Source: SAR324 cluster bacterium
GTDB lineage: Bacteria > SAR324 > NAC60-12
Length of the DNA stretch: 56,918 bases
Direction: 5' to 3'
NCBI GenBank assembly: GCA_016764995.1
Contig: JAESQU010000100.1
Coordinates: 1 to 56,918 of the forward strand
Part shown: positions 8,269 through 47,672 of the stretch, piece after piece
Numbering within the stretch: the stretch's first letter is position 1
Layout: every line of letters starts with the position of its first letter
Program-made: the position numbers and the translations under genes
Notes under the pieces: generated by a model
The model's database searches: none
What the model was told of the DNA's origin: nothing
Seen by the model: the letters and a program-made list of their open reading frames with translations, nothing else

Positions 8269-9288
8269 TTAATTTTTTTCTATGTTTTGTTGCAAGCATA
8301 ATTCTTTTCCAGATTTGCGGATTTTCCATTCTTGCGAAAGACGAAATTCCCATTGACTTCTTCCTGTACTGATTAGCTCAATAACTTTTTGCAATTTTCG
8401 GTAATTCAAGGCAAGTCTTGTTTTCGCGGTGATGAACCTATGCAATATTTCTCGCTGGAGTATTGCGTCGGCTTGTTCCAAATCCGCGAGAGACAAGACA
8501 GTTGAAGTTTCGTTATCGAAATTACCGGAGTTTTGTTCCCATTTATCATAAGCTGAATCCAGCCACTCATGCAGAAGTTGACTTTGTTCACTCAAATCAT
8601 TGATACGTGAGTGCAGGCCATGACGGGTTAATTCCTCCAATAGTGGAATCAGTTCCAGTCGCACTCGATTACGTAAGTATGTCGCGCTTTGATTGGAAGT
8701 ATCTTCCATCCAGTTCAGCTTATTACTGTTTAAATAATCTTGCAGTTCAGATTTTCCGCAATTGAGCAAAGGCCGAATAAATGGTGCGTTTTTCCAGCGC
8801 ATGCCTTGCAAATTTGAAATATGCGATCCACGAAGCCATTTAAGGATTATCGTTTCAGTTTGGTCATCAGCGTGATGTCCTGTTGCAATGCAGCCGCCTC
8901 CGAGAAATTCAAGCAGCTTGAGGGCCTCATCGATCCGCCAATCACGCGCGGATTCCTGTAAACCGGATTGTCCGGATTTAAGGTGCTTAGCGGTTTTAAA
9001 ATGGAAAGGGAGTTTATATTGATCGGCCAGAGATTTTACAAAGGCCTGCTCCTGTTTTGCTTCTGGACGAAGCTGATGATTGAAATGCAGAATTTGTAAT
9101 TCCAAACAAAGAAGTGTGCTGAGACGCTGGAGTAAATGGAGTAGTGCAACTGAGTCACTCCCACCACTAACGCAGACTACAACTTGGAGAGGCGTTTTTG
9201 CTGTACGTCTGTTTTTATTCTTTACCGCTGTGTCATTCAGTTGATAATGATTCCAGTTTTTTTGAATTTTTTGTAGAAGATTATCCAC
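8269..9288 (-). CDS. tilS: tRNA(Ile)-lysidine synthetase
   Basis: PP-loop VCVSGGSDSVALLHLL, then ATGHHADDQTET. Confidence 0.85.
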   Translation of the reverse strand: MDNLLQKIQKNWNHYQLNDTAVKNKNRRTAKTPLQVVVCVSGGSDSVALLHLLQRLSTLLCLELQILHFNHQLRPEAKQEQAFVKSLADQYKLPFHFKTAKHLKSGQSGLQESARDWRIDEALKLLEFLGGGCIATGHHADDQTETIILKWLRGSHISNLQGMRWKNAPFIRPLLNCGKSELQDYLNSNKLNWMEDTSNQSATYLRNRVRLELIPLLEELTRHGLHSRINDLSEQSQLLHEWLDSAYDKWEQNSGNFDNETSTVLSLADLEQADAILQREILHRFITAKTRLALNYRKLQKVIELISTGRSQWEFRLSQEWKIRKSGKELCLQQNIEKN

Positions 9289-9318: not shown

Positions 9319-10560
9319 TTATTGTCTGAATGTTTTCTCTTCCTTGTGGCCAAGTTGAGTCAATGAACTTTCTAAACGTTTCTGGAGTGGAATAAAACTA
9401 TCATCAACAGTCACAGCAGCATCCACAGAATCTTTACCTAATTTGACCAAAGTCATAACACCATCTTTAGTAAAGCGCATCAAATCGCGGTGAATATAAC
9501 CGTAATGAGTGATGTTTCCAAACTCAGTTAAAACAGGAAGATCAGCTTTTTTAGGAGTTGATTTTGATGTAAGTTTGAGTGCTCTGCGGTAAGCCACCAC
9601 CGCAAGATTGAACACCGGGGCCATGTTTTCACGGGCAGTGCGGTCACCACTTTCAATCCGTAACATTTGATATTTCAATGCCTGCATTTGAATACGACCT
9701 TCCATGAGAAGAGGATAAGTCAGCTTATTGTCAATCCGGCCCAGCCGTTTTGCCAAGTCAAGTCCAGCACTCTGAAGCAAGGGTATTTGCCTCAGCATTT
9801 CAATTGCCTGGACTGCTTTGCTGATGATCATATTCTGTTTGTTTGGATTTACTTTTTCTGTTTCGCCACTAAAAAAAGAACTGTGCGCTTTTCCTCCATG
9901 GGTCAGTTCCTCAATTTCTTCATGTGAAATTGAGGCAGTCATCTTGTCCTTTATGTTATGAATGACTGTTTCACAATTTTCGATCAAAGACTCTGCAATT
10001 TGAATTTCTGTTTTTGCGGACTTCATATCATGAACATTATCATCTTCATCAAAATCTTTATTATCTACATCAATCCCGCTCATGTTTACATTTTTCAATT
10101 CTTTTGATCTGATGGCCATCATTTTATGTTTGTGAAGATTTGCCAGACGCTCCAAATAAGAACGATATGTATGTACAACCAACTGCAGAAAGGTAGGAGA
10201 AATATCACCAAGATAAATGGGAATTGACGCCTGCAGCATCATGTTTAGATGAGTATGAAGGTGATGGTCTTTGCGGTCTGCCATCACGGCGTTCACTATG
10301 CTCAAACGTGCCAGGGGATTGGTCGGATCGCTATCTAATTGCTTGATTAACTTTGAAACCTTTTTGTTATTTGGAACATCACTTTGCAGGATACTGCCGT
10401 CAACATGCGGGTTTTCATGTTTGCCGCCAAAGATTTTTTTTACTCCGGATTTTTTATTATGCTCTCTTATATCCGTAATAATTTTAGCTATTTGATTCTG
10501 GAAGCTAATGAAATTTACATTTGGAGTTTTAGGATTTTCTACCAGTTCTTTGGCGGCCAT
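9319..10560 (-). CDS. Hypothetical protein, predicted mostly helical; co-oriented partner of the giant upstream gene
   Basis: 413-aa uninterrupted ORF lying 134 nt downstream of the giant gene and 30 nt upstream of tilS. No motif recognised. Confidence 0.7.
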   Translation of the reverse strand: MAAKELVENPKTPNVNFISFQNQIAKIITDIREHNKKSGVKKIFGGKHENPHVDGSILQSDVPNNKKVSKLIKQLDSDPTNPLARLSIVNAVMADRKDHHLHTHLNMMLQASIPIYLGDISPTFLQLVVHTYRSYLERLANLHKHKMMAIRSKELKNVNMSGIDVDNKDFDEDDNVHDMKSAKTEIQIAESLIENCETVIHNIKDKMTASISHEEIEELTHGGKAHSSFFSGETEKVNPNKQNMIISKAVQAIEMLRQIPLLQSAGLDLAKRLGRIDNKLTYPLLMEGRIQMQALKYQMLRIESGDRTARENMAPVFNLAVVAYRRALKLTSKSTPKKADLPVLTEFGNITHYGYIHRDLMRFTKDGVMTLVKLGKDSVDAAVTVDDSFIPLQKRLESSLTQLGHKEEKTFRQ

Positions 10561-10694
10561 TTTTTAGCTCAGTGGCTTGGTTAAAAATGAAAGCAAATCA
10601 ATTCAGTTGTTTGCATTATTATACGGATTAGACGGCTAAATGGAAACTGTTTTATCATGGCAAATTTAATTACTGATCTTTAAATCTGCCGTTG

Positions 10695-13600
10695 TTAGCC
10701 GTGCATAGATGCTTTGCCGATTTCATCAAATGTTCGACTCATAGGAAAGGGTTTTAAATGCTCGCGTGTGCCAATCGAATTATGGGGCCAGAGCGTGTTG
10801 GCGATGCCATTGAGGTAATTCTGCTGAAATTTTGGTGTTATTGGAAAATTGTAATTTGCGCCGTTGACCCAAATTTGCAGGTGGGGTAGATTTGAGGATC
10901 GTAAAGGAATTTTTAAGGCAGATAAATTTCGCAAGAATAATAGCCGACATTCCTGGCTGTTGAGACGCATAAAAAATTCTGCTAATGCGGAATCACCACC
11001 AATTCTTAATTTTGGTGGTACTTTCTTGATGACAATGTTATGAATATTAAAATTTATCACAAATTGCTCACCAAGATTATCACGTACAATCAGTGAAAGC
11101 GTATCGAGTTTGTTGACATGACAGACCATCAAAATGTCTCGAATGTAGTGCATATTTACCATCAACTCTCGTGATGAAACAGCAAATGGCGAAAAAAAAG
11201 TTTTTATTTTAGTAGCCAAAGTGAATAATGCACCACCTGAGATTGGATTCATCGCAATATCACTATGAATTTGTGCCGCTGGTTTTTCAAAGGTCGAAAG
11301 ATGTTTTCCACCAAAACCGACATAACCGCTAAAAGTACAGCGTGCAATACCCTCCACCAGGTTTGATTCAAACATCGGCATCACATTTTCTGCTCCACTT
11401 GCTCTGCCGGCTTCCTTGTGACTGAGCATTGAACTAAACTGCCACTTTGCGGATTTTCGTAAAAATTCAATCTTTATCCGTGAACGCGGGATGCTCAAAC
11501 TCTTAGAAATCGGCAAGGGTACCTGAAATGGTTTTCGTTCAAAGTTACGTTCAAAATGGAATTTAAAAATCACATTTTCCAATGAATCACCTGCAACCTT
11601 TACTTTCGCGTTTGTGATTGTCTTCCGGACCCAACTTTCCTCCATCTTTAATCCAAACTGACTAAAAAAATCAACAATTTTTCCTTGAACACTTTTTAGT
11701 TTTTGTAATTCCTCATAGACGATCTTGGCCTGCATTTGCTCAATTTTATTGAGGGGGATTTTCCTTTTAAGTTTTACCAGCACCTTCCGGTCTTCAATCG
11801 ACACACGTTGATTGACAACATCAAGCAAAGGACTCAGAAATTCTGTTGCTGTTTCTTTTTCAAAACCTTTCTCGCTAAGCCGTGCCAGCTGATTTGATAT
11901 TTGCTGGAGAGCGCGTGTATGTCCAATTTTGCATAGTTTTTTCTCAACTCGTGTCATTGACTCAAGAAAAAGCTTCTTGAGAATTTTTTCCACTTTGTTA
12001 CCAGCATCATCCCTGCCTTCTGTAAAACGGATTAGTTCACGACGGTCTTCAGGAATAGAGAAAAAAATATTATAAAAATCAACCAATGCTCTGCTACGCC
12101 AAGTCGCGTTTTCATCTTGCCAGAATGCTTTGCCGTCATCTCCGAAGTTTATAACATCAGAAATTCGCATGTGCTGTGCAAAGCAAAAAATAATATTTTT
12201 TTGAGTTTCAGAAAGAGTATTGAGTTCAAAATCCGGTTCTTCTTCTTCTTGTTCATAACTTTCAAAACGTACCAGCATTTCAGTAAATTTCAACCACCAC
12301 GGGTCGAGTTGTAGCGTTGGATAATCTTCTTCCATCTTAATAATCGCGTCAATCAAAGGGCCTTTACGTTGTTCCCGAACAAAATTTCTTCCTTCCGGAT
12401 TCCATAATAAACGAGTGAGACTTGTAGGCAGATCATCTTCCTTGTCAATACAGACAATCATTTCCAACCACCAACAGTTCAGTAAAGCTTTTGGGAGATT
12501 ACGGTGGCTGATTTTCTCACTTTCCCGCAAAAAAATAGGTAGTGCGTGACCCAAAAACATTTCACGAGGAATGATAATTTCTCCCCAATTCGGTAATTTT
12601 CCCAGCACAAAAGTTTCTTTTTCTTCTTCCAGAATTTGTGCCTTTTCAGCAACATTCTGCTTTAGCTGTCCCTCTTCAATTTTCGTTTGAGCAGTTATAT
12701 CTTTTACTTCATATTCTGCAACAAGGTTTTGTTTTAGTGTCCAATCTGCTTCAGGAAAAACACCAATTGATGAGAGAATTTTAAAATTCTTGGGCAAATC
12801 AAAAGGCATCGGAGTAATACCACAGATCATGGCCGCTGGATTAAGGAGAAAATCGTTCAGCATCAACGCATAAGCCATACTTCCTTCTGGAGAAACCAAA
12901 AATGGAGTGTGCTTTCCGTTGCGTTGTTTACGCAAAATGTTTGTAAAAAAATGAATTTCTGTAGTCGGATATTTTTTTGTAAGGTACGCCTCTGCTTGCT
13001 GAATTTTGAGATGCAGTGGATATTCAATTTCAGCTTCCAAATCCTTGGCTTGTCCGTCTGAAAAAGTTTCAATCAACATGACCATCCTGGAACTATATTT
13101 TATTTCCAGTTTTGACATGATTTTCTTTTCCAGCCCATCATCCAGTATTAAATTTTTAGTGCTAAAGTGTTGCTTTAGTACCTTTATTGCTTCTGAAACA
13201 TTGGCGCGTGAAATAAAAGCAACTTGATTGGAAAGGTGTTCAAAAAACTCGTTTAAAAGTAATGACAATTGAGAGTTATTGGTCAAACTATTCAAAAAAC
13301 AAGCATCTTGTTTTTCATCCGGCATAGATTCGGGAGACAAGTTGTTGCCGACCGCAAAGCGCCACAATACCTGGCGCGCACCGGCCTCATCTAGGAAAGT
13401 GTTGCGGTAAAATTGAACTAACCAGTTAAGTACCTTGCCTTTGTTGAATTGCTGCAACGAATACGGGAAACTCATTTTATGTAAATCTCCTCTGTTTTTT
13501 TTGATAAAGGAGAAAAAATTATTAAGTGGAGGCAACAAATCTTCACAATCCGGAAACTTTTTCAAAGTTGTAATGACAGCTCTCAGGAATAATCCATTTT

Positions 13601-14549
13601 GATCTTCTGTGGGTCGATTTTGTAAATGTAATTGAATCAATTTGTGCAGTTCCTTGCGGTAACTGCTGGCAAAGATGAACTCAATTACTCGCAGCTCTTC
13701 TTCGTTTAAGCCTTTACCGCATTTTTCTTTTAAAATCTCAATTGACGATTTTTTTATCGCTATTTGTTCTTTAGCATTCAGGGCATTACGGAAATAATTG
13801 TCATAAAAAGACTCCATCACATTTGCAATCAGTGCAACGAAGAAATCAGCGTCATTCCAACTGAAATTAAATTCCGGATTTGTGTTGATGATAACTTGCG
13901 CATCCATATCCGAATCAGGTTTGTGTCCGATTCCGCCCAAACTTCCAATGGTTGTGAGAGCCTTGATCATCTTTGCTGAGTCTTGTTTGAAATGACTCAC
14001 GAGGTCTGTTCCAGCAAATTCCTGCTCCAGATGAGCATCCATGCCCGCCTCACCCTTGATTGCGGCAGAAGACAAAAATCTTTCTATTCCTTCAATTCCA
14101 TGAATTGCTCCTTTTTGAAAAACATCAAAAGCAATACTGCGCATGACCGGCTTGCCAGCTTCATCAAACTTCCCTGTTTTTTCCTGTACTTCCAATACCG
14201 GCGAATCTTCCGGATTGATATCAAAAAGGAGCATACCTTCAAACATGGTTCGGTGCATTTCTTCATCACAAAGTTCCAGTAAACTTGCTAATCGTAAGCG
14301 GTTTATCCGGCCCATCTCATTAAATTCCCTTTGTGCGTACTCTTTCCATTTTTTCAAATGTTCTGTGTGGTAGGAGTCTCGCAGAGAATCACTGATTTTG
14401 GTGGAACTGAGGGATTGCAACAAAGTTTTAAATCCGCTTGCAGCAAAATCACCTTGAGGATTACATGGTATTTGAGCATTAAACGAACAGAGTAACTCAA
14501 GTTGTCTGTCGAGTTGGGAAAGTGTTTCGGTGCTCAAATCAGTATTCAT
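10695..14549 (-). CDS. Giant (~1285 aa) protein with a Pol-beta-type nucleotidyltransferase motif; class I adenylate-cyclase-like by local similarity
   Basis: IGSLGGIGHKPDSDMDAQVI (D-S-D-M-D at nt 13902-13916) resembles [20 protein letters not shown] of E. coli CyaA. It also resembles the GKLGGxELxxxSDxDL motif of the GlnE in this window. A later EIHFFTNIL...ALMLNDFLLNPAA segment resembles VSFFLID...LLLDEFYRTA. ATG at 14549 (MNTDLSTE) is preferred over the TTG at 14597. Confidence 0.8.
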   Translation of the reverse strand: MNTDLSTETLSQLDRQLELLCSFNAQIPCNPQGDFAASGFKTLLQSLSSTKISDSLRDSYHTEHLKKWKEYAQREFNEMGRINRLRLASLLELCDEEMHRTMFEGMLLFDINPEDSPVLEVQEKTGKFDEAGKPVMRSIAFDVFQKGAIHGIEGIERFLSSAAIKGEAGMDAHLEQEFAGTDLVSHFKQDSAKMIKALTTIGSLGGIGHKPDSDMDAQVIINTNPEFNFSWNDADFFVALIANVMESFYDNYFRNALNAKEQIAIKKSSIEILKEKCGKGLNEEELRVIEFIFASSYRKELHKLIQLHLQNRPTEDQNGLFLRAVITTLKKFPDCEDLLPPLNNFFSFIKKNRGDLHKMSFPYSLQQFNKGKVLNWLVQFYRNTFLDEAGARQVLWRFAVGNNLSPESMPDEKQDACFLNSLTNNSQLSLLLNEFFEHLSNQVAFISRANVSEAIKVLKQHFSTKNLILDDGLEKKIMSKLEIKYSSRMVMLIETFSDGQAKDLEAEIEYPLHLKIQQAEAYLTKKYPTTEIHFFTNILRKQRNGKHTPFLVSPEGSMAYALMLNDFLLNPAAMICGITPMPFDLPKNFKILSSIGVFPEADWTLKQNLVAEYEVKDITAQTKIEEGQLKQNVAEKAQILEEEKETFVLGKLPNWGEIIIPREMFLGHALPIFLRESEKISHRNLPKALLNCWWLEMIVCIDKEDDLPTSLTRLLWNPEGRNFVREQRKGPLIDAIIKMEEDYPTLQLDPWWLKFTEMLVRFESYEQEEEEPDFELNTLSETQKNIIFCFAQHMRISDVINFGDDGKAFWQDENATWRSRALVDFYNIFFSIPEDRRELIRFTEGRDDAGNKVEKILKKLFLESMTRVEKKLCKIGHTRALQQISNQLARLSEKGFEKETATEFLSPLLDVVNQRVSIEDRKVLVKLKRKIPLNKIEQMQAKIVYEELQKLKSVQGKIVDFFSQFGLKMEESWVRKTITNAKVKVAGDSLENVIFKFHFERNFERKPFQVPLPISKSLSIPRSRIKIEFLRKSAKWQFSSMLSHKEAGRASGAENVMPMFESNLVEGIARCTFSGYVGFGGKHLSTFEKPAAQIHSDIAMNPISGGALFTLATKIKTFFSPFAVSSRELMVNMHYIRDILMVCHVNKLDTLSLIVRDNLGEQFVINFNIHNIVIKKVPPKLRIGGDSALAEFFMRLNSQECRLLFLRNLSALKIPLRSSNLPHLQIWVNGANYNFPITPKFQQNYLNGIANTLWPHNSIGTREHLKPFPMSRTFDEIGKASMHG

Positions 14550-14888
14550 GCAATTGTTCAAAAATGATATTAGTAGAATTATAATGTTGCACAACATTTA
14601 TAGCAAATAAACGCGAAAAACGGAATGTAATATTAGTTGAAAAACACTACCTCAGATGTTCTTAACTTGTATAAAAAGACGAGGAGGGACTGACTTCGCT
14701 TAAAAAAAGAAGTTTGCCATTACTGTTAATGCCGGAGTCAATTGGAACTTACTTAGAAATATAACTTGATGCGAATGGTTGGGAAGACAGGAATGTTTTT
14801 GAATCTGTATGGAGCCGGTCAGCTACTGTAAAGCTAACCATGCTGAAGTTACTATGAGTAAGTAAATTTCAAAAAACGAGGTTCTGTT

Positions 14889-15659
14889 TTACTCAGTACC
14901 ACCTTTGGCAAGATCTCCGAGGCGGCCGAAGAAACCGGCTTTTTGCTTGCCAAGCAAGGGAGCAAGTTTTTGGAGACGTTCCCGAATTAGGCTTCCACTT
15001 TGCTGGCGTTTAATTTTTACATTTGGGTTGGCAAGTTTGCTGGCGGAAACAATGTTTGAATCATTTACGTCTGCCGGACGCAAAATTCCGGTTACAGTGG
15101 TAATATATCGGACCTGATTACGTTGTCGATAATCAATTTTTTGCCCTTTGATGAGCATATTCCCATCCGGAAGAACCCGGATTACTCTTGCGGAAATTCC
15201 ATCCAGATTTCGTAAAATGTCGTTTTGTTCCTCTTCAATTTCATCTCTGAGCGTCAAGGCTTCTAAAGCAACGTTTGCAGTTTCTGCTCCTCCTGCCGGT
15301 TGACCTTCTGGAGCTAATTTAGGAGGAGGAACATTTACGATTAAACTCATTTCATTTATACTAAGCAAATCTCCACGGAAGCGGGCACGATGATCCCGGA
15401 GTAAATTTCCGAATGATGATTCATAGCGCCAGAGAGAGCCTTCATATAGATTTCTGCTCGAGGAAATTCGTTTACGGCGCAGACGTTTTGATGTCAGTAT
15501 TAATTTTTCATTCTGTTTAATTAACGCTTTTGCCGCTAAAACATCAGCCGGAGGACGTGGTTGTGATCTGGGCGGAAGACAACCTGTGATAATCAGCGCC
15601 AGCAATGAGGCCAAAAACCAGTTCAACAACCTTGAAAATGTGAATGAAAATCGAAACAC
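14889..15659 (-). CDS. flgH: Flagellar L-ring lipoprotein
   Basis: Lipobox LIITGC. GSLWRY...LLRDHRARFRGDLL and VTGILRPADVNDSNIVSASKLANPNV match conserved FlgH blocks. Confidence 0.88.
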   Translation of the reverse strand: MFRFSFTFSRLLNWFLASLLALIITGCLPPRSQPRPPADVLAAKALIKQNEKLILTSKRLRRKRISSSRNLYEGSLWRYESSFGNLLRDHRARFRGDLLSINEMSLIVNVPPPKLAPEGQPAGGAETANVALEALTLRDEIEEEQNDILRNLDGISARVIRVLPDGNMLIKGQKIDYRQRNQVRYITTVTGILRPADVNDSNIVSASKLANPNVKIKRQQSGSLIRERLQKLAPLLGKQKAGFFGRLGDLAKGGTE

Positions 15660-18917: not shown

Positions 18918-20330
18918 ATGACTACGCCGAAAGATGTAATTGAATTTGCAAAACTAAATGATGTCGTAATGGTTGACTTGAAGTTCATCGACTTTCTTGG
19001 AACATGGCAGCACTTCGCTGTCCCTGTTTCTGAACTCTCTGAGGAGATGCTTGAAGAAGGCCGAATGTTTGATGGTTCCAGTATTCGTTGCTGGCAGACT
19101 ATTGACAACAGTGACATGAAAATTATGCCGGATTTATCGACATTCAAAATGGATCCGTTTTTTGATCATCCGACTCTCTCCCTGATTTGTGATATTCAGG
19201 ATCCGGTAACCGGAGAGGACTACTCTCGTGATCCACGCAATGTAACCAAGAAAGCGGAAAAATATCTCATCTCTACAGGAATTGGAGATACCATTTTTGT
19301 TGGCCCGGAAGCAGAATTTTTCCTGTTTGACGATGTACGTTTCGGACAAGGTCCAGAAGGAGGTTTTTATTCCATCGATTCTACAGAATGTCCCTGGAAT
19401 TCCGGTGCCGAAGAAATGGGCGGAAATAAAGCTTATAAAATTGGTCACAAGTCCGGTTATTTTCCTGCAGCGCCCTTTGATCAGGACCGCGATATTAGGG
19501 CAGAAATGGTGCTGACAATGGAGGATTTGGGTCTGACCATTGAAGCACAACATCATGAAGTTGCACCGGCTCAGCATGAAATTGACTTTAGGTATGATAC
19601 AATGTTGAAGGCTGCGGACATGATGCAATGGTACAAATATGTCGTACGAAATGTGGCTCGCGAAAATGGCAAGTCCGCCACCTTTATGCCAAAACCGATG
19701 TTTGCGGATAACGGAAGTGGGATGCACACGCATCAGTCGATTTGGAAGGATGGCAAACCATTGTTTGCCGGCGATCAATATGCCGGATTGAGTGAAATGG
19801 CACTGTATTATATCGGAGGCATCCTGAAGCACGCTCCGGCATTGGCTGCCTTAACCAATCCCTTGACCAACTCCTACAAACGACTTGTGCCAGGTTTTGA
19901 AGCCCCGATCAACTTGGCATATTCAAATCGTAACCGCTCTGCGACGGTTCGTATTCCTGTCGTTGATTCACCAAAAGGCCGCAGGATCGAGTACCGTTGT
20001 CCTGATTCTGGTGCCAATGTCTATTTGGCTTTTCCTGCCATGATGATGGCTGGAATAGATGGGATCCAAAATAAAATTGATCCAGGTGATCCGATGGATG
20101 TGAATATCTATGATCTTCCGCCGGAAAAATTGAACAAAATTGGTAAGATGCCGAGTTCATTGCAAGAAGCTTTAGAAGCGCTTAAAAATGACCACGAATT
20201 TTTACTCAAAGGTGATGTTTTTACCAAAGATGTCATTGATTACTGGCTGAACTGGAAAATGGAAGAGGAAGTCAAATCCATCGATTCACGCCCCCATCCA
20301 CATGAGTTTGAGTTGTATTACCACTGTTAG
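18918..20330 (+). CDS. glnA: Glutamine synthetase type I
   Basis: 470 aa. [40 protein letters not shown], and the adenylylation-site context VNIYDLPPE are present. Confidence 0.95.
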
Positions 20331-20342
20331 ACTCCTTTTTTC

Positions 20343-20380
20343 GTGGGAGTGATTTCTTTGCTCCCACAGCTTTCCTTTTT
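20343..20380 (+). terminator. Possible terminator after glnA
   Basis: Stem GTGGGAG/CTCCCAC with an 11-nt loop. A T-rich tract (CCTTTTTTATTT) begins a few nt downstream. Confidence 0.45.
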
Positions 20381-20630
20381 TATTTCCTTTTCAAAATATA
20401 CTTTTTAAATCCTGTCCCTGATTCAGGATAAAATTCTCTGTTTTGCAAATTTGCAAAAATTAGCAGTGTTTAGTTATTCCGGCATAATTCAGACAAGAAG
20501 CCACATCACGAGCTGCCATTCAATTTTGCCGGATCAATTATTTGCATGTATGACAGAACCATTTTTTATTTTTGACAATTGCCGAAATATGATAAACTGT
20601 GCTCGCACTTAAACCTTCTTAAAGTTAAAC

Positions 20631-23600
20631 GTGAGCCTCAACGACTGGATAAACAACCTCTTTCCTTTGCCGAAAACTATTGACTGGCAGGAAATATTAC
20701 AGGATTCTTCTTCACCATTTTCATACGCGCCTTCGGAGCAGCTGGCGAACTTGCTGGAAAAGAGTGTTGCAATTAAAGGAATTGCAGGTCACCTCCCTCA
20801 GTTTCTTCCAGTCCTGCTCACGTGCGGGACTCCGGAAATCGCCTTGACTCAGCTGCTTAATTTTTCGGATTCTTTTCGCGACCAGAATGGAAGTGATTTT
20901 AACTGGAGTCTTCCGGAAACAAAGGCATTGTTGCACGTTTTTGGACGAAGCAATTTTCTGGCAAATCGTTTAAAACGGAATCCGCAACTTGCTGAACGTG
21001 TACTTGAATCTCCTTTTCTATTGAAAAAGAAAAGTGTAGAAATTATGGAAACGGAACTCAGGAAAAGGCTTGAGCAGCAACCGGAGTTTTCTCTTAAGGA
21101 ATTCAAGAATATTTTAAGGCGTTTTAAATACGAAGAATATTTACGCATTACTGTCCGAGATTTGGCAGGACTTTGCCCATTCCAGGATACACTTGAAGAA
21201 CTATCTGCTATCGCAATTTGCTGTTTACGGGTTGCCCTTTCAGGAATTTCAAAGTACGAATTGGGAATCAATAGTGATTCCGCAACAGAATCAATTCCGG
21301 ATACAACTGAAAATGATAGTGTAAATATCGAACATTTCCGGAGTGAAAATAGTCAAGAGATTTTTCCATTTATGATTTTGGGAATGGGAAAGTTAGGCGG
21401 CAATGAATTGAATTATTCATCCGATGTTGATTTAATTTTCATTCACGATTACGAACCTCTCAGCGGAGATCCGGAGCGTGATTATAAACTCCGGATGAAA
21501 GCAGCAAGGATATTGATTGATGTAATGGCGGATGTGACAGAGGAGGGTTTTTTGGCACGGATGGATATGCGCTTACGTCCCGGTGGTGATCGAGCGCCGC
21601 TGGTTCAGTCTTTTGACGAGATGGAATTATATTACACAGCAAAAGGAGAACTTTGGGAGCGTCAAGCCTTGATCAAAGCAGTTCCGGTAGCCGGAACAAC
21701 TCAGTCCGGAAAAGATTTTATGAGCATGATAACACCTTTTGTTTTCCGGAGTCTGCTGGATGAAGCGGTCTTGCACGATGTGGAAAAAGTAAAGAAGCGT
21801 ATCGAAGCAGAACATTTGCGTGAAAACTATTTGAACGTAAAATTAGGTGTAGGAGGAATCCGTGAAGTTGAATTTTTTGTACAAACTTTTCAATTGTTAT
21901 ATGGCGGTAGTAAGCCGGAACTGCGCTGTCCTGCGACTTTGGAAGTTTTAAACAAACTGCGGGAAGCAGAATTAATTCCGGAACGTGATGCGGATACTTT
22001 GGGAGAAGCATATTTGTTTTTACGTCGTGTGGAACATCACCTCCAATTGCGCGAAGAGCAACAAACACACACCTTGCCTTCAGACATAATACAACAACAG
22101 GAAATTGCCAGAAATTTAGGTTACAACGATTTTTATATTGAAAAAGCACGTCAACAATTATTAAGTGATTTAAAAGATGTGATGGGGCGGGTGCGTGCTA
22201 TTTTCAGTGGTTTGTTTAGTCGCAAACATCTTGAAATTGAAGCCGCAATCCGCAACTGTGCCCGTATTAAAAGTTTTACTTCAGAGGAGCAGCAGTTTAT
22301 TGAATTATTCTCCCAGCACCTTGCGCCGTTGATAAGTGAAAGTACAAAAAATAAATTTCAGCGTCTGTTTGAATCCGTAAGTGTGAAAATTGGTTATTAT
22401 CGAAAATTGTCAAAGCATCCATCTTCACTTGCACGCTTGATGCGAATTGCTGAAACAAGCGAAATGCTCTGGAATTATTTACTTAATAACTTGGAATTAC
22501 TGGAACAACTGGACAATGCCACACTGGAAATATCAAAAGAAATTTGGGACAAACAACTTGAAGAGAAACTGCTGAATTGCGCAGATAATGAGGAAGCTGA
22601 AATTGATCAGCTGCGGCAATTTAAGCATACAATCACCTTTCTGCTGGGAAGTGCTGAACTGGAAGGCGTCCTGTCATACGAAAGAACCAGAAAGGGACTG
22701 ACTTTGCTGGCAGAAGTAATTGTTCAGGCGGCATTTCGTTTGTCACAAAAATGGTTAAATCAACGTTATGGTGAAGTCCGCAACTCTTTGGGAGAATCAG
22801 GGCAGTTTGCAATAATCGGATTGGGAAAATTGGGCGGCAGTGAATTAACATATTTTTCGGATCTCGATTTGATTTTTATCCATTCTGGTGATGGAACGAC
22901 CAACGGCGTCCGTAAAATTGACGCACAGGAATATTGGATCAAATTGATTCAACGTCTCATTTCAAGCCTTTCCACAATGACTCGTACCGGCTATGCCTAC
23001 AAGCTTGATGCACGCCTGCGTCCATCTGGAAACGCCGGTGTTTTGGTGACACCTTTAGATGTATATCTTAAATATCACGAAAAATCACAACCCTGGGAAC
23101 ACCAAGCGTTGATCAAAGGAAGGGTAATCGGCGGAAGCGGTGAAACACAATGGATTCAAGAAGTGGAGAAGGGAATCCGCAGCGCGGTTTATGATTGGAT
23201 GCCTCCTGAAGATATGAATGAGCAAATCCACCAATTCCGCCAGCGAAAAGAAAAAGAACTGTCTGGTGAGAAGGAAAATCGGCGAAATATCAAAGAAGGC
23301 AGAGGAGGATTGTTGGATATTGAATTTCTGACACAAGCATTGCAACTTAAATTTGGGCGTAATTATCCTCAATTACAATGCCACAGAACACTGGATGCGC
23401 TAAGTAAACTTGGTGAACTTGATTTGCTAATCAAAGAAGAAGCTGAAAGTTTACAATATAATTACAAATTGTTGAGAGTAATTGAAAATGGACTTCGGCT
23501 GATCTATGATGAATCAACGGATTTACTGGATTTTGAGAAAGTTAAGGCAGAGACAATTCTTCAATTACTAAAACATCATGGCTACGAATTTACAAATTTG

Positions 23601-23660
23601 CGGGAGACTGTGGAAACGGTGACACAAAACGTTCGGGAGATATATCTTCGCTATTTTTGA
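20631..23660 (+). CDS. glnE: Bifunctional glutamine synthetase adenylyltransferase/adenylyl-removing enzyme
   Basis: 1009 aa with two nucleotidyltransferase modules: LGMGKLGGNELNYSSDVDLIFIH..RLRPGG and IGLGKLGGSELTYFSDLDLIFIH..RLRPSG. A GTG start is assumed. Confidence 0.92.
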   Translation: MSLNDWINNLFPLPKTIDWQEILQDSSSPFSYAPSEQLANLLEKSVAIKGIAGHLPQFLPVLLTCGTPEIALTQLLNFSDSFRDQNGSDFNWSLPETKALLHVFGRSNFLANRLKRNPQLAERVLESPFLLKKKSVEIMETELRKRLEQQPEFSLKEFKNILRRFKYEEYLRITVRDLAGLCPFQDTLEELSAIAICCLRVALSGISKYELGINSDSATESIPDTTENDSVNIEHFRSENSQEIFPFMILGMGKLGGNELNYSSDVDLIFIHDYEPLSGDPERDYKLRMKAARILIDVMADVTEEGFLARMDMRLRPGGDRAPLVQSFDEMELYYTAKGELWERQALIKAVPVAGTTQSGKDFMSMITPFVFRSLLDEAVLHDVEKVKKRIEAEHLRENYLNVKLGVGGIREVEFFVQTFQLLYGGSKPELRCPATLEVLNKLREAELIPERDADTLGEAYLFLRRVEHHLQLREEQQTHTLPSDIIQQQEIARNLGYNDFYIEKARQQLLSDLKDVMGRVRAIFSGLFSRKHLEIEAAIRNCARIKSFTSEEQQFIELFSQHLAPLISESTKNKFQRLFESVSVKIGYYRKLSKHPSSLARLMRIAETSEMLWNYLLNNLELLEQLDNATLEISKEIWDKQLEEKLLNCADNEEAEIDQLRQFKHTITFLLGSAELEGVLSYERTRKGLTLLAEVIVQAAFRLSQKWLNQRYGEVRNSLGESGQFAIIGLGKLGGSELTYFSDLDLIFIHSGDGTTNGVRKIDAQEYWIKLIQRLISSLSTMTRTGYAYKLDARLRPSGNAGVLVTPLDVYLKYHEKSQPWEHQALIKGRVIGGSGETQWIQEVEKGIRSAVYDWMPPEDMNEQIHQFRQRKEKELSGEKENRRNIKEGRGGLLDIEFLTQALQLKFGRNYPQLQCHRTLDALSKLGELDLLIKEEAESLQYNYKLLRVIENGLRLIYDESTDLLDFEKVKAETILQLLKHHGYEFTNLRETVETVTQNVREIYLRYF

Positions 23661-43088: not shown

Positions 43089-46000
43089 ATGGGCTCAAAC
43101 AAGAAACAAACAAGCAAGTACAAATCAGCGTTTCATGCCGCTGAAGTGATGTCACACGATCTTTCCTTACTGCGTGGTAAGAAACTCCCAACTTTTTTTG
43201 ATGATTCAGCAATTCTGGGGTTACTGTCTGCTGAAGAGATTGATGAAGAAGTTCAGAAATTGAAGAAAATTGACGTTGACTCCTATATTCAACGTGTGGT
43301 GAATCCTTCTGAATCCAAAAAACGTCCGAGTGCGTCGGAAGTAATTCAGCAATTAGGTGGAAAAATGATTGCTGAAGAAACAGAAGGTCCGCTCTATACT
43401 GCGGAAATTGAATTTTTAATTTCAGGACAAACACGGAGACTGGGATTTATTGCCCAAAATCACAAAATACAAAATGGTGTCTGGTCTCCAACTCACCATC
43501 GGAAAGCCTCAGAAAAGGTGCGCTTCTTTGCTTCGCACAGTATTCCTCTAGTAACGTTTATTGATACGCCAGGTGCGGCCGCAGACGCAGAAGCAAATTT
43601 GGACAACCAATCGCATAGCATTTCATTTTTAATCAGTGAGATGGCTAATTTGCAATTGCCTGTTGTCGGAATTGTTTTTGGAAGTGGTTACAGCGGCGGC
43701 GCGATTCCCTTGGCAACTGCCAATATTCTGCTTTCCGTTCGAGAAGGTGTTTTCAATACTATTCATCCAAAAGGCTTAAGCAACATTGCCCGGAAATATA
43801 ATCTGTCATGGCAGGAGTCGGCAAAACACATTGGTGTTTCAGCATATGAATTAAAGGCTCAGGGGTATTTTGACGGTATCATCGATTATGCTTATGACAG
43901 CCCACATAAGACAAAAAATATCAAGGACGCGATCATCAGCGCGGTAGAAGCAACAGAGAAAAATTCCTGCAAATTTTTAATTGAAAATGATTTTTTCTTC
44001 GACCATTATCGTGACAGTATCTATCATTATCTCCATCCTTCAAAGCTCTTAATAGAAAGCAACAGAGTCACAGATCGATCACCAACAGGCACACTGAACA
44101 TTTTTGGCGATGTTTATCGTTTTATGCGTTACCTCAGATTACGCCAGCGAATTGTCAGTCGCTCAATAGACAGTTATGCGCGGCTCAGTTCACGCCAAAC
44201 TCCTGTTGGGAAATTGCAGGAACGTTTAAAAAACGAACGTCAAGTAAAACTGCAGCAGTGGTACAAAACGTCACTGGAAGTTCGATTTCATGAAAAACTG
44301 AATAAAAGTTTTGAACAGTTTGTCAGTGCCAGGGAAGATCGTGAAAAAGAACGAGGTCGTTTGGTTGCCTTTTTCATCGGCGATCCTCGAGAAAATTATA
44401 AAAAAGCCGTTGATGATCTTACTCTGGAAATCCTGCTTTATCTTTATAATTATTGGAAGGACAGTACTTCAGAAAACATGATAGAACTCTACGAAGAACT
44501 AGGTGAAGTCACTCTTAATGACCGTACACCCAGCAATCCAAATTTATTGGATTTATTAAAAACGACAGTAATTAATCAGAGTTTTAAGGAAAATTTTCAG
44601 AACATACTTCTTTTTGACTTGCTCTACAATCAAGTCATAGAAGCACTACCGACAATTGCAGATGAGTTGAAAGGGACAAATCAAATTTCCCAAAAGTCGG
44701 TAGAACAATTGTTCGAGAAAACCGTTGAAGGAGCAATGAAGGAATTCGAGAAAAATTCTTTGCGACTTGATAGCGATTCTATACGGACAAAATTTTTCAA
44801 GTGGCTGGCAAATTTCATTGACCACAAAGATTGTGATGATGTTTTGGGAACCATCAGTGATTGGAAACGAGTTGTCTTCCCCCGTATGAGTCCTCCGCTG
44901 TTTGGACTTGTGCGCTACTATTTTTCCGGACTGCTGCCTTCACTTTACGAAGCTCAGCAGAAAAAAGGAAAATTTCAAGGAAAAATCACTCCACGTAATA
45001 TCGGCATTAAAGATTTTTGGAATCGTCTGGATCAATCCTACAAGGATTTGCTGATCCAAAATTTGCTACGTGAATACAAAAGCTCTGTCATTACTCCCAC
45101 TAAAGTCATTAACCATTATTTCAAAGACTTTAAGGAATTGTATGCGGATAGAATTACTTCAAATCCGGTTAAATTTCCAGGATTCAGGGAGGCAATTGAA
45201 CAGGCATTGGATAGTGGTGTTACTCCATGTGGTGTGGTGACAGGACTTGGAACATTTGTCCATGAAGAAAATGTAGAAAATGCCACTGACAAAAAAATCA
45301 AAACTAAAAAACAAAAATCATCATATCGTGTCGGTTTGGTTGTTAGTAATGTAGAGTTTCAGGCCGGTGCTTTTGATATGGCAAGTTGTGAAAAAGTTTG
45401 CCGTTTGCTTGATGACTGCGCACGTTTGAAATTACCGGTTATCTTTTTCATCTCTTCTGCGGGAATGCAAACCAAAGAAGGCGGCGGATCTTTATTCTCG
45501 ATGGCAATCATAAATGAACGCATTACTCGATTTGTGAAAGATTTGGACCTTCCGGTTTTATGTTTCGGTTTTCGTGACTGCACCGGAGGTGCGCAAGCAA
45601 GTTTTGTGACGCATTTGCTTGTTCGTACATATTATTTTTCTGGATCACAAATTCCCTTTGCGGGACAGTTGGTTGTGGAAAGTCACTTGCCTGCCCATTC
45701 TACTTTATCGAATTACCTCTCTACAAATCCAGGTACAATGGATGGTCTGGTAAAAAATCCTTTTGACAAAAAAATTGATGAAAAGCTACAGGAAATTGAC
45801 CCACAAATTCCGATTGCGAAATTTTCCGTAGAGGAAATTATTTCACGTATCTTGTCAGGCGAATATCAGTTGTCAGAAGAAGACGAAGTTCAGACATATT
45901 CTACACAGGAAAATTTGCATGCCAATGAGATCAAGCGAGTCCTGATTCACGCGCGTGGATGCACGGCTGCCCGTCTTATACGTGGTACCCAAGATGCGGG

Positions 46001-47672
46001 AATGGAAGTGGTTCTAGTGGCCTCAGATCCGGATATGGAAAGTTATCCAGCAACAATGTTACGGGCGAAAGATCGTCTGGTTTGCATTGGAGGAAATACA
46101 CCTCAGGATAGTTATTTAAACGGAATGAGCGTGATCCGGATTGCTGAACAGGAGGAAGTTGACGCAATTCATCCCGGCATAGGATTTTTATCAGAATCAC
46201 CGCATTATGCCAGGATTTGCCGCGAACACGGTTTCAACTTTGTTGGGCCACGTGTCGCGAATATGGATAGAATGGGCAACAAATCAAATGCAATTGCGAC
46301 TGCACGAAATTTAAATATACCTGTAGTTCCAGGCAGTGAGGGTGCCTTAATGGATCCTGTTCATGCCATGGGTGTTGCCGCAGAAATTGGATTCCCTGTA
46401 CTGATTAAAGCGGCACATGGCGGTGGTGGAAAAGGGATTGAAGTGGTCAAAGAAGCAGGGCGCTTCAAATCAATTTTTTCACGTATGTTTCAAGAAGCCT
46501 TAAGCGCATTTGGTAATGGAGATTTGTATTTGGAAAAATTCGTCGGCTCGATGCGTCACCTTGAAGTACAAATAATCCGGGACATGCATGGTAATTCAAA
46601 ATTATTGGGTATTCGTGATTGCTCAGTTCAACGAAATTACCAAAAACTGATTGAGGAAACTGCTTCCGGAATTCCGAAAAATATTAAGGAACAGGTTTTT
46701 GATTATGCAGGCAAATTGATTGACGAGATTGATTACATTGGCGCGGGAACAGTCGAATTTATTTATGATCTTGATCAAAAATGTGTGTATTTTATGGAAA
46801 TGAATACTCGGCTGCAAGTTGAACATCCTGTATCAGAAATGGTTTCCGGAACCGATTTGGTAAGCCTCCAGTTTGAAGTAACACAAGGTCACAACATTGG
46901 AGAACTGGATTTTAAACTCAATGGTCATGCCATAGAATTACGTGTGATTGCGGAAAAAATCGAAATGGACGATGACGGTGAATTGCGATTTATTCCTGAT
47001 CCGGGTCATTTAACAGAAGTGTTTTTTCCGGAAAAAGCAAATGTGCGGGTTATACAATCCGTGACATCAGGTTCCATTGTTTCACCTTTCTACGATAGTC
47101 TTATCGCACAAATCATTTGCTGGGGAAAATCACGCAGGGAAGCAATTAGCAGTTTGCTCGAATTTTTAAAAGGAGTTAGAATTCATGGTGTTTCCACCAA
47201 CTTGGCATTGAATCGGGTAATTTTACAGGATCCTGCCTTTAAAAAAGGACGTTTCAGTACTAAGTATCTTGTAGAGTTATTTGAAAGAATTGATGGAAAA
47301 AAACTATTAAGAGAGGCACAAAAAGATGCGGGAACAGCAAAAAGTGCAGTGGACCAGAAGGCAATTATGCTGGAAGGTTCAAATGAGTTGAAAGTGCTTT
47401 CACCACAGATGGGCGGTTTTTATCGTGCAGCGTCCAGAGAGGATGAGCCATTTATCAGTGAAGGTCAAATCATTGACGTCAATCATATTCTGTGTCTGCT
47501 GGAATCAATGAAAGTTTTCACAGAATTATCTTTGGCAGACTACAAAAGTCCTGATGGCGAAGCATTATATCCGGATAATGTAAAATACAAAGTTTCTCGA
47601 GTTATTGCTGAAGACCAAAGCACTGTCAACCAGGGTGATTTGCTGTTTGTGATGCAGCCTGTGGATGCTTGA
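43089..47672 (+). CDS. Single-chain biotin-dependent carboxylase: AccA-like CT-alpha + ~450-aa linker + AccD-like CT-beta + biotin carboxylase + BCCP
   Basis: PLVTFIDTPGAAAD and GSGYSGGAIPLA (AccA-like). VEFQAGAFDMAS..FISSAGMQTKEGGGSLFSM..CTGGAQASF (AccD-like). GGGGKG, RDCSVQR and EMNTRLQVEHPVSE (AccC-like). LLESMKVF biotinyl-Lys motif (AAA at 47511-47513). Confidence 0.9.
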   Translation: MGSNKKQTSKYKSAFHAAEVMSHDLSLLRGKKLPTFFDDSAILGLLSAEEIDEEVQKLKKIDVDSYIQRVVNPSESKKRPSASEVIQQLGGKMIAEETEGPLYTAEIEFLISGQTRRLGFIAQNHKIQNGVWSPTHHRKASEKVRFFASHSIPLVTFIDTPGAAADAEANLDNQSHSISFLISEMANLQLPVVGIVFGSGYSGGAIPLATANILLSVREGVFNTIHPKGLSNIARKYNLSWQESAKHIGVSAYELKAQGYFDGIIDYAYDSPHKTKNIKDAIISAVEATEKNSCKFLIENDFFFDHYRDSIYHYLHPSKLLIESNRVTDRSPTGTLNIFGDVYRFMRYLRLRQRIVSRSIDSYARLSSRQTPVGKLQERLKNERQVKLQQWYKTSLEVRFHEKLNKSFEQFVSAREDREKERGRLVAFFIGDPRENYKKAVDDLTLEILLYLYNYWKDSTSENMIELYEELGEVTLNDRTPSNPNLLDLLKTTVINQSFKENFQNILLFDLLYNQVIEALPTIADELKGTNQISQKSVEQLFEKTVEGAMKEFEKNSLRLDSDSIRTKFFKWLANFIDHKDCDDVLGTISDWKRVVFPRMSPPLFGLVRYYFSGLLPSLYEAQQKKGKFQGKITPRNIGIKDFWNRLDQSYKDLLIQNLLREYKSSVITPTKVINHYFKDFKELYADRITSNPVKFPGFREAIEQALDSGVTPCGVVTGLGTFVHEENVENATDKKIKTKKQKSSYRVGLVVSNVEFQAGAFDMASCEKVCRLLDDCARLKLPVIFFISSAGMQTKEGGGSLFSMAIINERITRFVKDLDLPVLCFGFRDCTGGAQASFVTHLLVRTYYFSGSQIPFAGQLVVESHLPAHSTLSNYLSTNPGTMDGLVKNPFDKKIDEKLQEIDPQIPIAKFSVEEIISRILSGEYQLSEEDEVQTYSTQENLHANEIKRVLIHARGCTAARLIRGTQDAGMEVVLVASDPDMESYPATMLRAKDRLVCIGGNTPQDSYLNGMSVIRIAEQEEVDAIHPGIGFLSESPHYARICREHGFNFVGPRVANMDRMGNKSNAIATARNLNIPVVPGSEGALMDPVHAMGVAAEIGFPVLIKAAHGGGGKGIEVVKEAGRFKSIFSRMFQEALSAFGNGDLYLEKFVGSMRHLEVQIIRDMHGNSKLLGIRDCSVQRNYQKLIEETASGIPKNIKEQVFDYAGKLIDEIDYIGAGTVEFIYDLDQKCVYFMEMNTRLQVEHPVSEMVSGTDLVSLQFEVTQGHNIGELDFKLNGHAIELRVIAEKIEMDDDGELRFIPDPGHLTEVFFPEKANVRVIQSVTSGSIVSPFYDSLIAQIICWGKSRREAISSLLEFLKGVRIHGVSTNLALNRVILQDPAFKKGRFSTKYLVELFERIDGKKLLREAQKDAGTAKSAVDQKAIMLEGSNELKVLSPQMGGFYRAASREDEPFISEGQIIDVNHILCLLESMKVFTELSLADYKSPDGEALYPDNVKYKVSRVIAEDQSTVNQGDLLFVMQPVDA

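Follow-up and report, generated by a model that had tools for sequence, protein, structure and literature searches.

Gene content of the locus

The 56,918 nucleotides of contig JAESQU010000100.1 from a SAR324 cluster bacterium (assembly GCA_016764995.1), hereafter called the window, contain a large open reading frame (ORF), hereafter called BIG, and downstream of it an ORF of 413 amino acids, hereafter called c5 (Table 1). The predicted product of BIG resembles the class I adenylate cyclases, which are the textbook source of cyclic AMP (cAMP) in Escherichia coli (CyaA) and which, to our knowledge, are treated as essentially gammaproteobacterial. Inspection of the ORFs confirmed that BIG and c5 are both intact, lie in the same orientation on the minus strand and are separated by 134 nt, as the initial annotation of the window had stated. 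All homologues of BIG begin at M17 (ATG at 14549), as does the database copy of BIG; therefore this ATG is probably the true start codon, giving a product of 1284 amino acids. The spacer between the two genes contained one promoter-like match, although matches in the region were overall not above chance, and the same promoter and terminator scan found no terminator-like site on the coding strand between BIG and c5. Rfam and tRNA scans over the whole window gave no matches.

Similarity of BIG to class I adenylate cyclases

A profile made from six BIG sequences was searched against 1.84 billion representative proteins. The 116 matches consisted of BIG-like proteins or their fragments and, as a second group, proteins with lengths of 900-1060 amino acids (typically about 950), hereafter called family M. 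The named sequences of family M come from SAR324-type metagenome-assembled genomes (MAGs) and are mostly labelled 'hypothetical'; one UniRef entry has a name beginning with 'Adenylate cyclase class'. The Pfam profile Adenyl_cycl_N (PF12633) matched all 20 aligned members of family M (best E 8.7e-14), most of those scanned singly being above its threshold, and no match to Adenylate_cycl (PF01295) was found in these 20 sequences even at E<=5. In the BIG family, PF12633 matched 26 of 26 aligned members at the first nucleotidyltransferase (NTase) motif (best E 4.7e-9), and its threshold was exceeded by several of them, such as P0030 (31 bits) and P0052 (37 bits).

Profile-profile alignment with hhalign joined BIG and family M from end to end (probability 100%, E 1e-62, 808 columns), their sequence identity being 20-22%. 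Family M in turn aligned with class I cyclases of four species, E. coli, Klebsiella, Proteus and Aeromonas, over 551 columns corresponding to CyaA 10-616 (94.1%, E 1.3e-7), and a merged alignment of BIG and family M, with BIG as the first row, gave 93.2% over 561 columns. When family M was aligned with GlnE, another large NTase, as a control, the probability was 0.4% over 30 columns; the link is therefore specific to the cyclases and extends well beyond the NTase motif. Seven motifs occur in identical order in BIG, family M and the class I cyclases. By way of the intermediate family M, homology was found not only at the generic NTase motif but throughout the catalytic half. Judged from these alignments, BIG and the class I cyclases share an ancestor over at least CyaA residues 9-619, and a three-family alignment extends this region to about residue 711.

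Direct comparison was much less informative. The BIG family aligned with E. coli CyaA alone, and likewise with the GlnE encoded in the window, over only about 50 columns (probability about 2% in each case), and therefore a cyclase cannot be distinguished from a generic NTase on the direct evidence alone. Sequence searches of the PDB with BIG gave no match, and a profile search of the PDB with the BIG family returned only kanamycin nucleotidyltransferase (E 0.19), at the NTase motif. The similarity to class I cyclases that the initial annotation had proposed thus holds by way of family M, whereas the direct comparison is weak and the curated thresholds are missed. By those thresholds BIG lies outside the curated class I cyclase family.

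The Klebsiella, Proteus and Aeromonas cyclases were taken from chromosome records mislabelled as plasmids, and a search of metagenomes for a wider range of class I cyclases yielded only E. coli-like genes (94-100% identical). Three PLSDB 'plasmid' records of 4-5 Mb with a chromosomal cyaA (NZ_AP026896.1, NZ_OL790812.1 and CP125156.1) appear to be misfiled chromosomes.

Catalytic motifs and conserved residues

The Pol-beta-type NTase signature, hG[GS]x9-13Dh[DE]h followed by h[DE]h, is present in BIG as I-G218-S219-x10-D230-M-D232-A and, later, T-E547-I, both parts lying in predicted beta-strands. The nearest family to this signature is the N-terminal domain of class I adenylate cyclases (Adenyl_cycl_N), and motif 1 corresponds to G102 S103 ... 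S113 D114 x D116 of CyaA. Motif 2 starts 329 residues downstream (from residue 218 to residue 547), very close to the distance of about 330 residues given initially. Two profile-profile alignments placed KYPTTEIHFFTNILRKQRNGKHTPFLVSPEGSMAYALMLNDFLL of BIG on the EVSFFLID...LLLDEF segment of CyaA, so that the parallel drawn earlier between these blocks was confirmed, with the register E547=E150, F551=F154, I554=D157, R559=R162, E571=E172 and D582=D184. Both motifs are nearly invariant in a family whose members diverge to 35% identity.

The Asp of the FFLID sequence in CyaA, D157, had initially been paired with an Asn of BIG, and a chemistry other than cAMP synthesis had been considered on this basis. 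In the present register D157 pairs with I554 and not with N553; it is Ser in family M and varies even among the four aligned class I cyclases. The sole acid on this strand that is kept in BIG, family M and the class I cyclases is E547/E150, in h-E-h context. An h-E-h strand is the classical site of the third carboxylate in Pol-beta-type NTases, and E547 is probably the third metal-binding acid. Since D157 is variable and pairs with I554, and E547 is conserved, nothing in the sequence suggests that the chemistry is altered.

An E-INS-i alignment of the three families, made independently of hhalign, paired further residues of BIG and CyaA. These were R102=R19, G218-S219=G102-S103, S229=S113, D230=D114, D232=D116 and D249=D126 in the N-terminal part, R559=R162, E571=E172, D582=D184, K695=K253, K703=K260, E712=E269, D765=D300 and R834=R347 in the middle, and W1052=W464, F1135=F531 and R1172=R599 in the C-terminal part. 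The BIG of the window keeps all of the paired residues, as do 42 of the 52 aligned members. The residues S103, S113, D114, D116 and W118 are said to be essential in CyaA, and BIG has S219, S229, D230 and D232 at the first four of these positions but Q234 at the fifth.

In nine clusters of the family (P0010, P0013-P0019 and P0021) E547, H549, F551, E571, K703 and R834 are replaced together, in proteins that are still full length; in a tenth cluster, P0009, only E547 is changed. The joint loss of the six residues indicates that they mark one functional site. The sub-clade with the degraded site, in which c5 is retained, is probably a pseudo-enzyme lineage of positional orthologues: the degraded copy at L022:8001-11837 (P0010), for example, is still arranged flgH-BIG-c5-tilS.

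Predicted architecture

An AlphaFold2 model of residues 101-1300 of BIG, made from 52 sequences, had a predicted local distance difference test score (pLDDT) of 85.2 and a predicted template modelling score (pTM) of 0.82. In it a strand (211-216) is followed by the G-S loop, the DxD strand (231-237), a helical insert and the strand that carries E547 (548-554 in the model, IHFFTNI), an order compatible with a Pol-beta core. A small alpha/beta region then continues to about residue 624. As the initial annotation had supposed, the catalytic core is thus predicted to be split by a large insertion, which separates the DxD strand from the IHFFTNI strand. The insert varies in length, being about 290 residues in BIG, about 130 in family M and about 20-30 in CyaA, and one group of paralogues lacks residues ~368-505. 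The two invariant blocks of the middle domain contain residues paired with CyaA, the first K695, K703 and E712 (CyaA K253, K260 and E269) and the second D765 (CyaA D300).

Table 1 Positions of genes, motifs and predicted domains. Positions with an L number refer to that locus, all others to the window
Feature	Position	Strand	Remarks
BIG, large ORF	10695..14597	-	1300 amino acids counted from the first ATG; class-I-adenylate-cyclase-like nucleotidyltransferase (predicted)
Motif 1, GSLGGIGHKPDSDMDAQV, residues 218-235	13893..13946	-	G-S turn and D230-x-D232 strand, Pol-beta-type NTase
Helical insert, ~290 residues, residues 249-542	12972..13853	-	all-helical in the AlphaFold2 model; poorly conserved
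Motif 2, EIHFFTNILRKQRNGKHTPFLVSPEGSMAYALMLNDFLLNPA, residues 547-588 (EIHFFTNIL...LMLNDFLLNPA)	12834..12959	-	E547 core strand, then R559, E571, G572-S573, D582
Acidic linker, residues ~627-658	12624..12719	-	low confidence/disordered; only in the clade of the window
Helical middle domain, residues 678-1018	11544..12566	-	invariant blocks LRESEKxSHRNLPKALLNCWWLEM and DPWW
C-terminal alpha/beta domain, residues ~1040-1300	10698..11480	-	alignable with a section of the regulatory (C-terminal) half of CyaA
BIG-c5 spacer, 134 nt	10561..10694	-	promoter/terminator scan
c5, 413 amino acids	9319..10560	-	no family match; predicted all-alpha helical repeat (TPR / 14-3-3-like)
tilS, tRNA(Ile)-lysidine synthetase	8269..9288	-	starts 30 nt after c5; context only
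flgH	14889..15659	-	flgA and flgG further upstream; context only
Orphan ORF, 558-575 amino acids	L025:6007-7683, L033:5867-7594, L046:5610-7331, L047:5979-7658		between flgH and BIG
efp/epmA-linked BIG paralogues	L025:8001-13819, L027:7301-13013, L034:7355-12952, L045:2958-8415, and 17 further loci		tight strings

Distribution, paralogues and gene neighbourhood

A scan of species-representative genomes gave 52 BIG loci, all in SAR324-type MAGs, and the named homologues of both BIG and c5 come from SAR324 or 'Lambdaproteobacteria' MAGs, in agreement with the SAR324 origin of the window. A single genome often carries two or three BIG paralogues, and in at least nine MAGs a BIG of the window type is accompanied by one of another type. 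The description of BIG as an orphan was therefore not upheld: its full-length relatives number more than 50, many genomes have the two or three paralogues just mentioned, and family M, of about 950 amino acids, is its sister family. The literature consulted contained no report on SAR324 cyclases or on a class I cyclase structure, and BIG and family M, as placed by the profile alignments, are an undescribed, SAR324-restricted sister branch of the class I cyclase family. The expectation that a relative of about 1285 amino acids would be unusual in its genomic background was borne out as to taxonomy, SAR324 being far from the sources of the gammaproteobacterial cyclases, and as to size (1284 against about 850 amino acids).

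On the minus strand of the window the gene order is flgG, flgA, flgH, BIG, c5, tilS and a gene for a ROK-family kinase. Linkage to c5 was assessed in 19 loci that had a BIG orthologue (52-86% identical) and enough downstream flank. In 17 of these c5 is the first gene downstream of BIG, at a median distance of about 120 nt, and in the other two (L011 and L014) a carboxyltransferase gene follows BIG instead. The order c5-tilS is conserved in 15 loci, tilS lying within about 20-30 nt of c5, and flgH is upstream of BIG in 16. All of the paralogous clades lack c5. The pairing of BIG and c5 is thus real but specific to one clade, so that the partnership proposed initially applies to the orthologous loci and not to the family.

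The c5 product had no match to Pfam, NCBIfam or PADLOC models, in line with its first description as a protein without recognisable motif, and its named homologues all come from SAR324-type MAGs. The model of c5 was all-alpha (pLDDT 79, pTM 0.75), and Foldseek found a weak similarity to tetratricopeptide repeat (TPR) and 14-3-3-like proteins (best E 5e-3, template modelling score below 0.45), from which c5 is predicted to be a helical-repeat protein of this kind. Two other origins of c5 were rejected: a diverged EpmA-like protein, EpmA occupying the same position in paralogous loci (hhalign 0.2%), and a relative of the orphan c26 (0.1%). In freshwater and sediment lineages of SAR324 an orphan ORF of 558-575 amino acids is found between flgH and BIG (Table 1); it has no match in Pfam, NCBIfam or PADLOC and is unrelated to c5.

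The paralogous clades have a different neighbourhood. In 21 loci the BIG paralogue is part of a tight string with the order efp-BIG-epmA or BIG-efp-epmA. The efp product scored above the NCBIfam equivalog cut-off for elongation factor P (EF-P) and has a lysine-type loop, VKPGKG; the epmA product likewise exceeded the equivalog cut-off for the EF-P beta-lysine ligase EpmA and has an N-terminal extension of about 100 amino acids relative to the 304-position model TIGR00462. In a neighbour-joining tree of the BIG family, rooted on family M, the efp-linked clades were basal and the c5-linked clade of the window was derived. The BIG of the window adjoins neither efp nor epmA, both genes being absent from the window. 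All of the loci are from one phylum, and the synteny may thus be partly inherited; the gene order has changed while the linkage was kept, which argues for some selection for the association with efp and epmA. The neighbours of family M genes are variable and unrelated, and none of efp, epmA and c5 is close to them. No connection of class I cyclases with EF-P is known to us.

No PADLOC model matched BIG, c5 or one member of family M. BIG lies among housekeeping genes (flg, tilS, ROK kinase) whose synteny is conserved, an arrangement that, together with the lack of a PADLOC match, does not correspond to CBASS, Pycsar or similar anti-phage nucleotide-signalling systems.

Proposed function of BIG

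On balance, BIG is probably an active enzyme homologous to the class I adenylate cyclases, of which E. coli CyaA is the type, but highly divergent from them and enlarged. In such an enzyme D230, D232 and E547 would hold two Mg2+ ions, the G218-S219 turn and S229 would bind the triphosphate, and a nucleoside triphosphate, most simply ATP, would be cyclised to a 3',5'-cyclic nucleotide and pyrophosphate. The helical insert may carry regulatory input, as may the helical middle domain and the C-terminal domain that resembles CyaA, and the clade-specific c5 could bind BIG or regulate it. Proteins that bind cyclic nucleoside monophosphates (cNMP), such as the product of 53382-55637, would read the signal; cNMP-binding proteins are encoded in the window and also beside one family M gene, which supports a role of BIG in cyclic nucleotide synthesis.

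Several observations weigh against the assignment of BIG as an active cyclase. Of the Pfam profiles that the initial annotation had named, Adenyl_cycl_N was the sole Pfam match of BIG, at 21.5 bits (E 2.5e-4) below its 27-bit gathering threshold and over profile positions 71-120 of 199 around the G-S...DxD motif, and Adenylate_cycl (about 600 amino acids), on which E. coli CyaA scores 858 bits, matched neither BIG nor the 26 BIG family members. On NF006981, the NCBIfam equivalog for class I adenylate cyclases, BIG scored 17.3 bits, the cut-off being 802, and direct alignment with the four-species cyclases gave 2.7% over only the N-terminal 118 columns. The position of CyaA W118 is occupied by Q234 in BIG and by Gln also in family M. 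Foldseek with the whole 1200-residue model of BIG against the PDB and BFVD gave nothing better than E 0.03, all matches being helical-repeat or tape-measure noise, and the 2026 copy of the PDB that was searched contained no class I cyclase chain. A plain cAMP synthase would not explain the strings with efp and epmA, the cyclic product proposed above is entirely an inference, and the persistence of the degraded orthologues suggests some function that is independent of catalysis.

The strings with efp and epmA, together with tilS closely following c5 in the clade of the window, would also be explained if BIG were an active nucleotidyltransferase other than a cyclase, with a protein, RNA or small molecule of translation as acceptor. 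For the paralogues the candidate is the beta-lysylation pathway of EF-P / EpmA, and for the clade of the window it is something related to tRNA, next to tilS. Many Pol-beta NTases are transferases, including the GlnE of the window, and the Trp of CyaA is not conserved. We nevertheless regard such a transferase as unlikely, because the homology spans the whole length of the class I cyclases and residues conserved in the cyclases are kept outside the NTase motif. Family M lacks any constant neighbours, the synteny may owe something to common descent within the phylum, and the window itself shows no association with the two EF-P genes.

A further reading, which we hold to be rather doubtful, is that the BIG family is a class-I-cyclase-derived enzyme tied since its origin to the module for beta-lysylation of EF-P by EpmA. 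Such an enzyme would not be a plain cAMP synthase; it might provide a nucleotide signal by which EF-P-dependent translation is reported or controlled, or it might nucleotidylate one of the components of the EF-P module. The copy in the window, with its TPR-like c5 beside tilS, would then be a derived offshoot, some lineages of which keep a pseudo-enzyme.

It is improbable that BIG is mainly a non-catalytic scaffold or sensor acting through c5 and other proteins, with the 'active-site' residues serving ligand binding. The nine clusters with a degraded site would fit such a role, about 900 of the 1284 residues of BIG are helical or non-core, and c5 would be a repeat scaffold of the protein-binding type. 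Against this, the BIG of the window and the 42 members with an intact set keep all putative catalytic residues although the paralogues are only 35-40% identical, which is typical of an enzyme. Very improbable is a chance resemblance, with BIG as an unrelated NTase-fold protein that shares only the generic Pol-beta motif with cyclases: the low direct scores and the kanamycin nucleotidyltransferase match would agree with it, but it is contradicted by the two strong links through family M, by the GlnE control and by the seven motifs whose order the three families share.

Other genes

The ORF at 53382-55637 (minus strand) encodes 751 amino acids. Two cNMP-binding domains had been reported in its product, of which one is robust and the second is only a weak stretch; the protein also has an N-terminal metallo-beta-lactamase domain, which had not been mentioned and which resembles Apyc1, a cyclic-nucleotide phosphodiesterase, at a score below threshold (E 4e-5). 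The whole protein may be a phosphodiesterase under the control of cNMP, and this would agree with signalling by cyclic nucleotides in the SAR324 bacterium of the window. A cNMP_binding-Hpt-HATPase hybrid kinase is encoded at L140:1-461 near one family M gene, and directly upstream of that M gene there is a gene for adenylate kinase.

At 18918-23660 (plus strand) glnA is followed by the gene for the 1009-amino-acid GlnE adenylyltransferase, a double-NTase protein, which served as the negative control. The ORF at 43089-47672 (plus strand) encodes a 1527-amino-acid fusion of carboxyltransferase, biotin carboxylase and biotin-carrier domains, apparently an acyl-CoA carboxylase in fully fused form, and related fused or partial carboxylase forms flank BIG paralogues at L027:4369-7122 and L014:11827-13578.

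Significance and comparison with known systems

SAR324, an uncultured marine lineage, is among the most abundant bacterial groups of the deep ocean. The two families, of about 950 and about 1285 amino acids and with several paralogues in many genomes, form a deep branch of the class I superfamily in this group, and if the proteins make cAMP, BIG and family M are candidates for the missing cyclase of SAR324. The residues common to the three families, namely D-x-D, the Glu of the next strand and the equivalents of R162, E172, D184, K260, E269 and D300, offer a compact definition of the class I active site, which the sub-clade with the degraded site, a natural 'knock-out', supports. The association with efp and epmA is the lead most worth following; if the linkage is functional, it points to a new connection between nucleotide signalling and EF-P.

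Compared with Pol-beta NTases such as kanamycin nucleotidyltransferase, GlnE and the CD-NTases, BIG has the same hG[GS]x10DhDh motif and a later hEh strand, but the similarity ends after about 50 residues, and BIG matches no defence-system model. With CyaA it has in common the order of the motifs, the G-S...S-D-x-D signature, the strand with the conserved acid followed by FF, and the equivalents of R162, E172, D184, K253, K260, E269, D300 and R347, as well as the VPxGR...W and NG-aromatic blocks in the C-terminal half. Unlike CyaA, with its length of about 850 amino acids, BIG has 1284, including about 85 additional residues at the N-terminus and the helical insert of about 290. Other differences from CyaA are the Gln in place of W118, the lack of a PF01295 or NCBIfam match with PF12633 below threshold, the origin from SAR324 rather than Gammaproteobacteria, the presence of several paralogues in many genomes, and an activity that is predicted. 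Family M is a full-length homologue of BIG with the same motifs and from the same phylum; it is about 300 amino acids shorter, has an insert of only about 130 residues and stands closer to the class I cyclases than BIG does.

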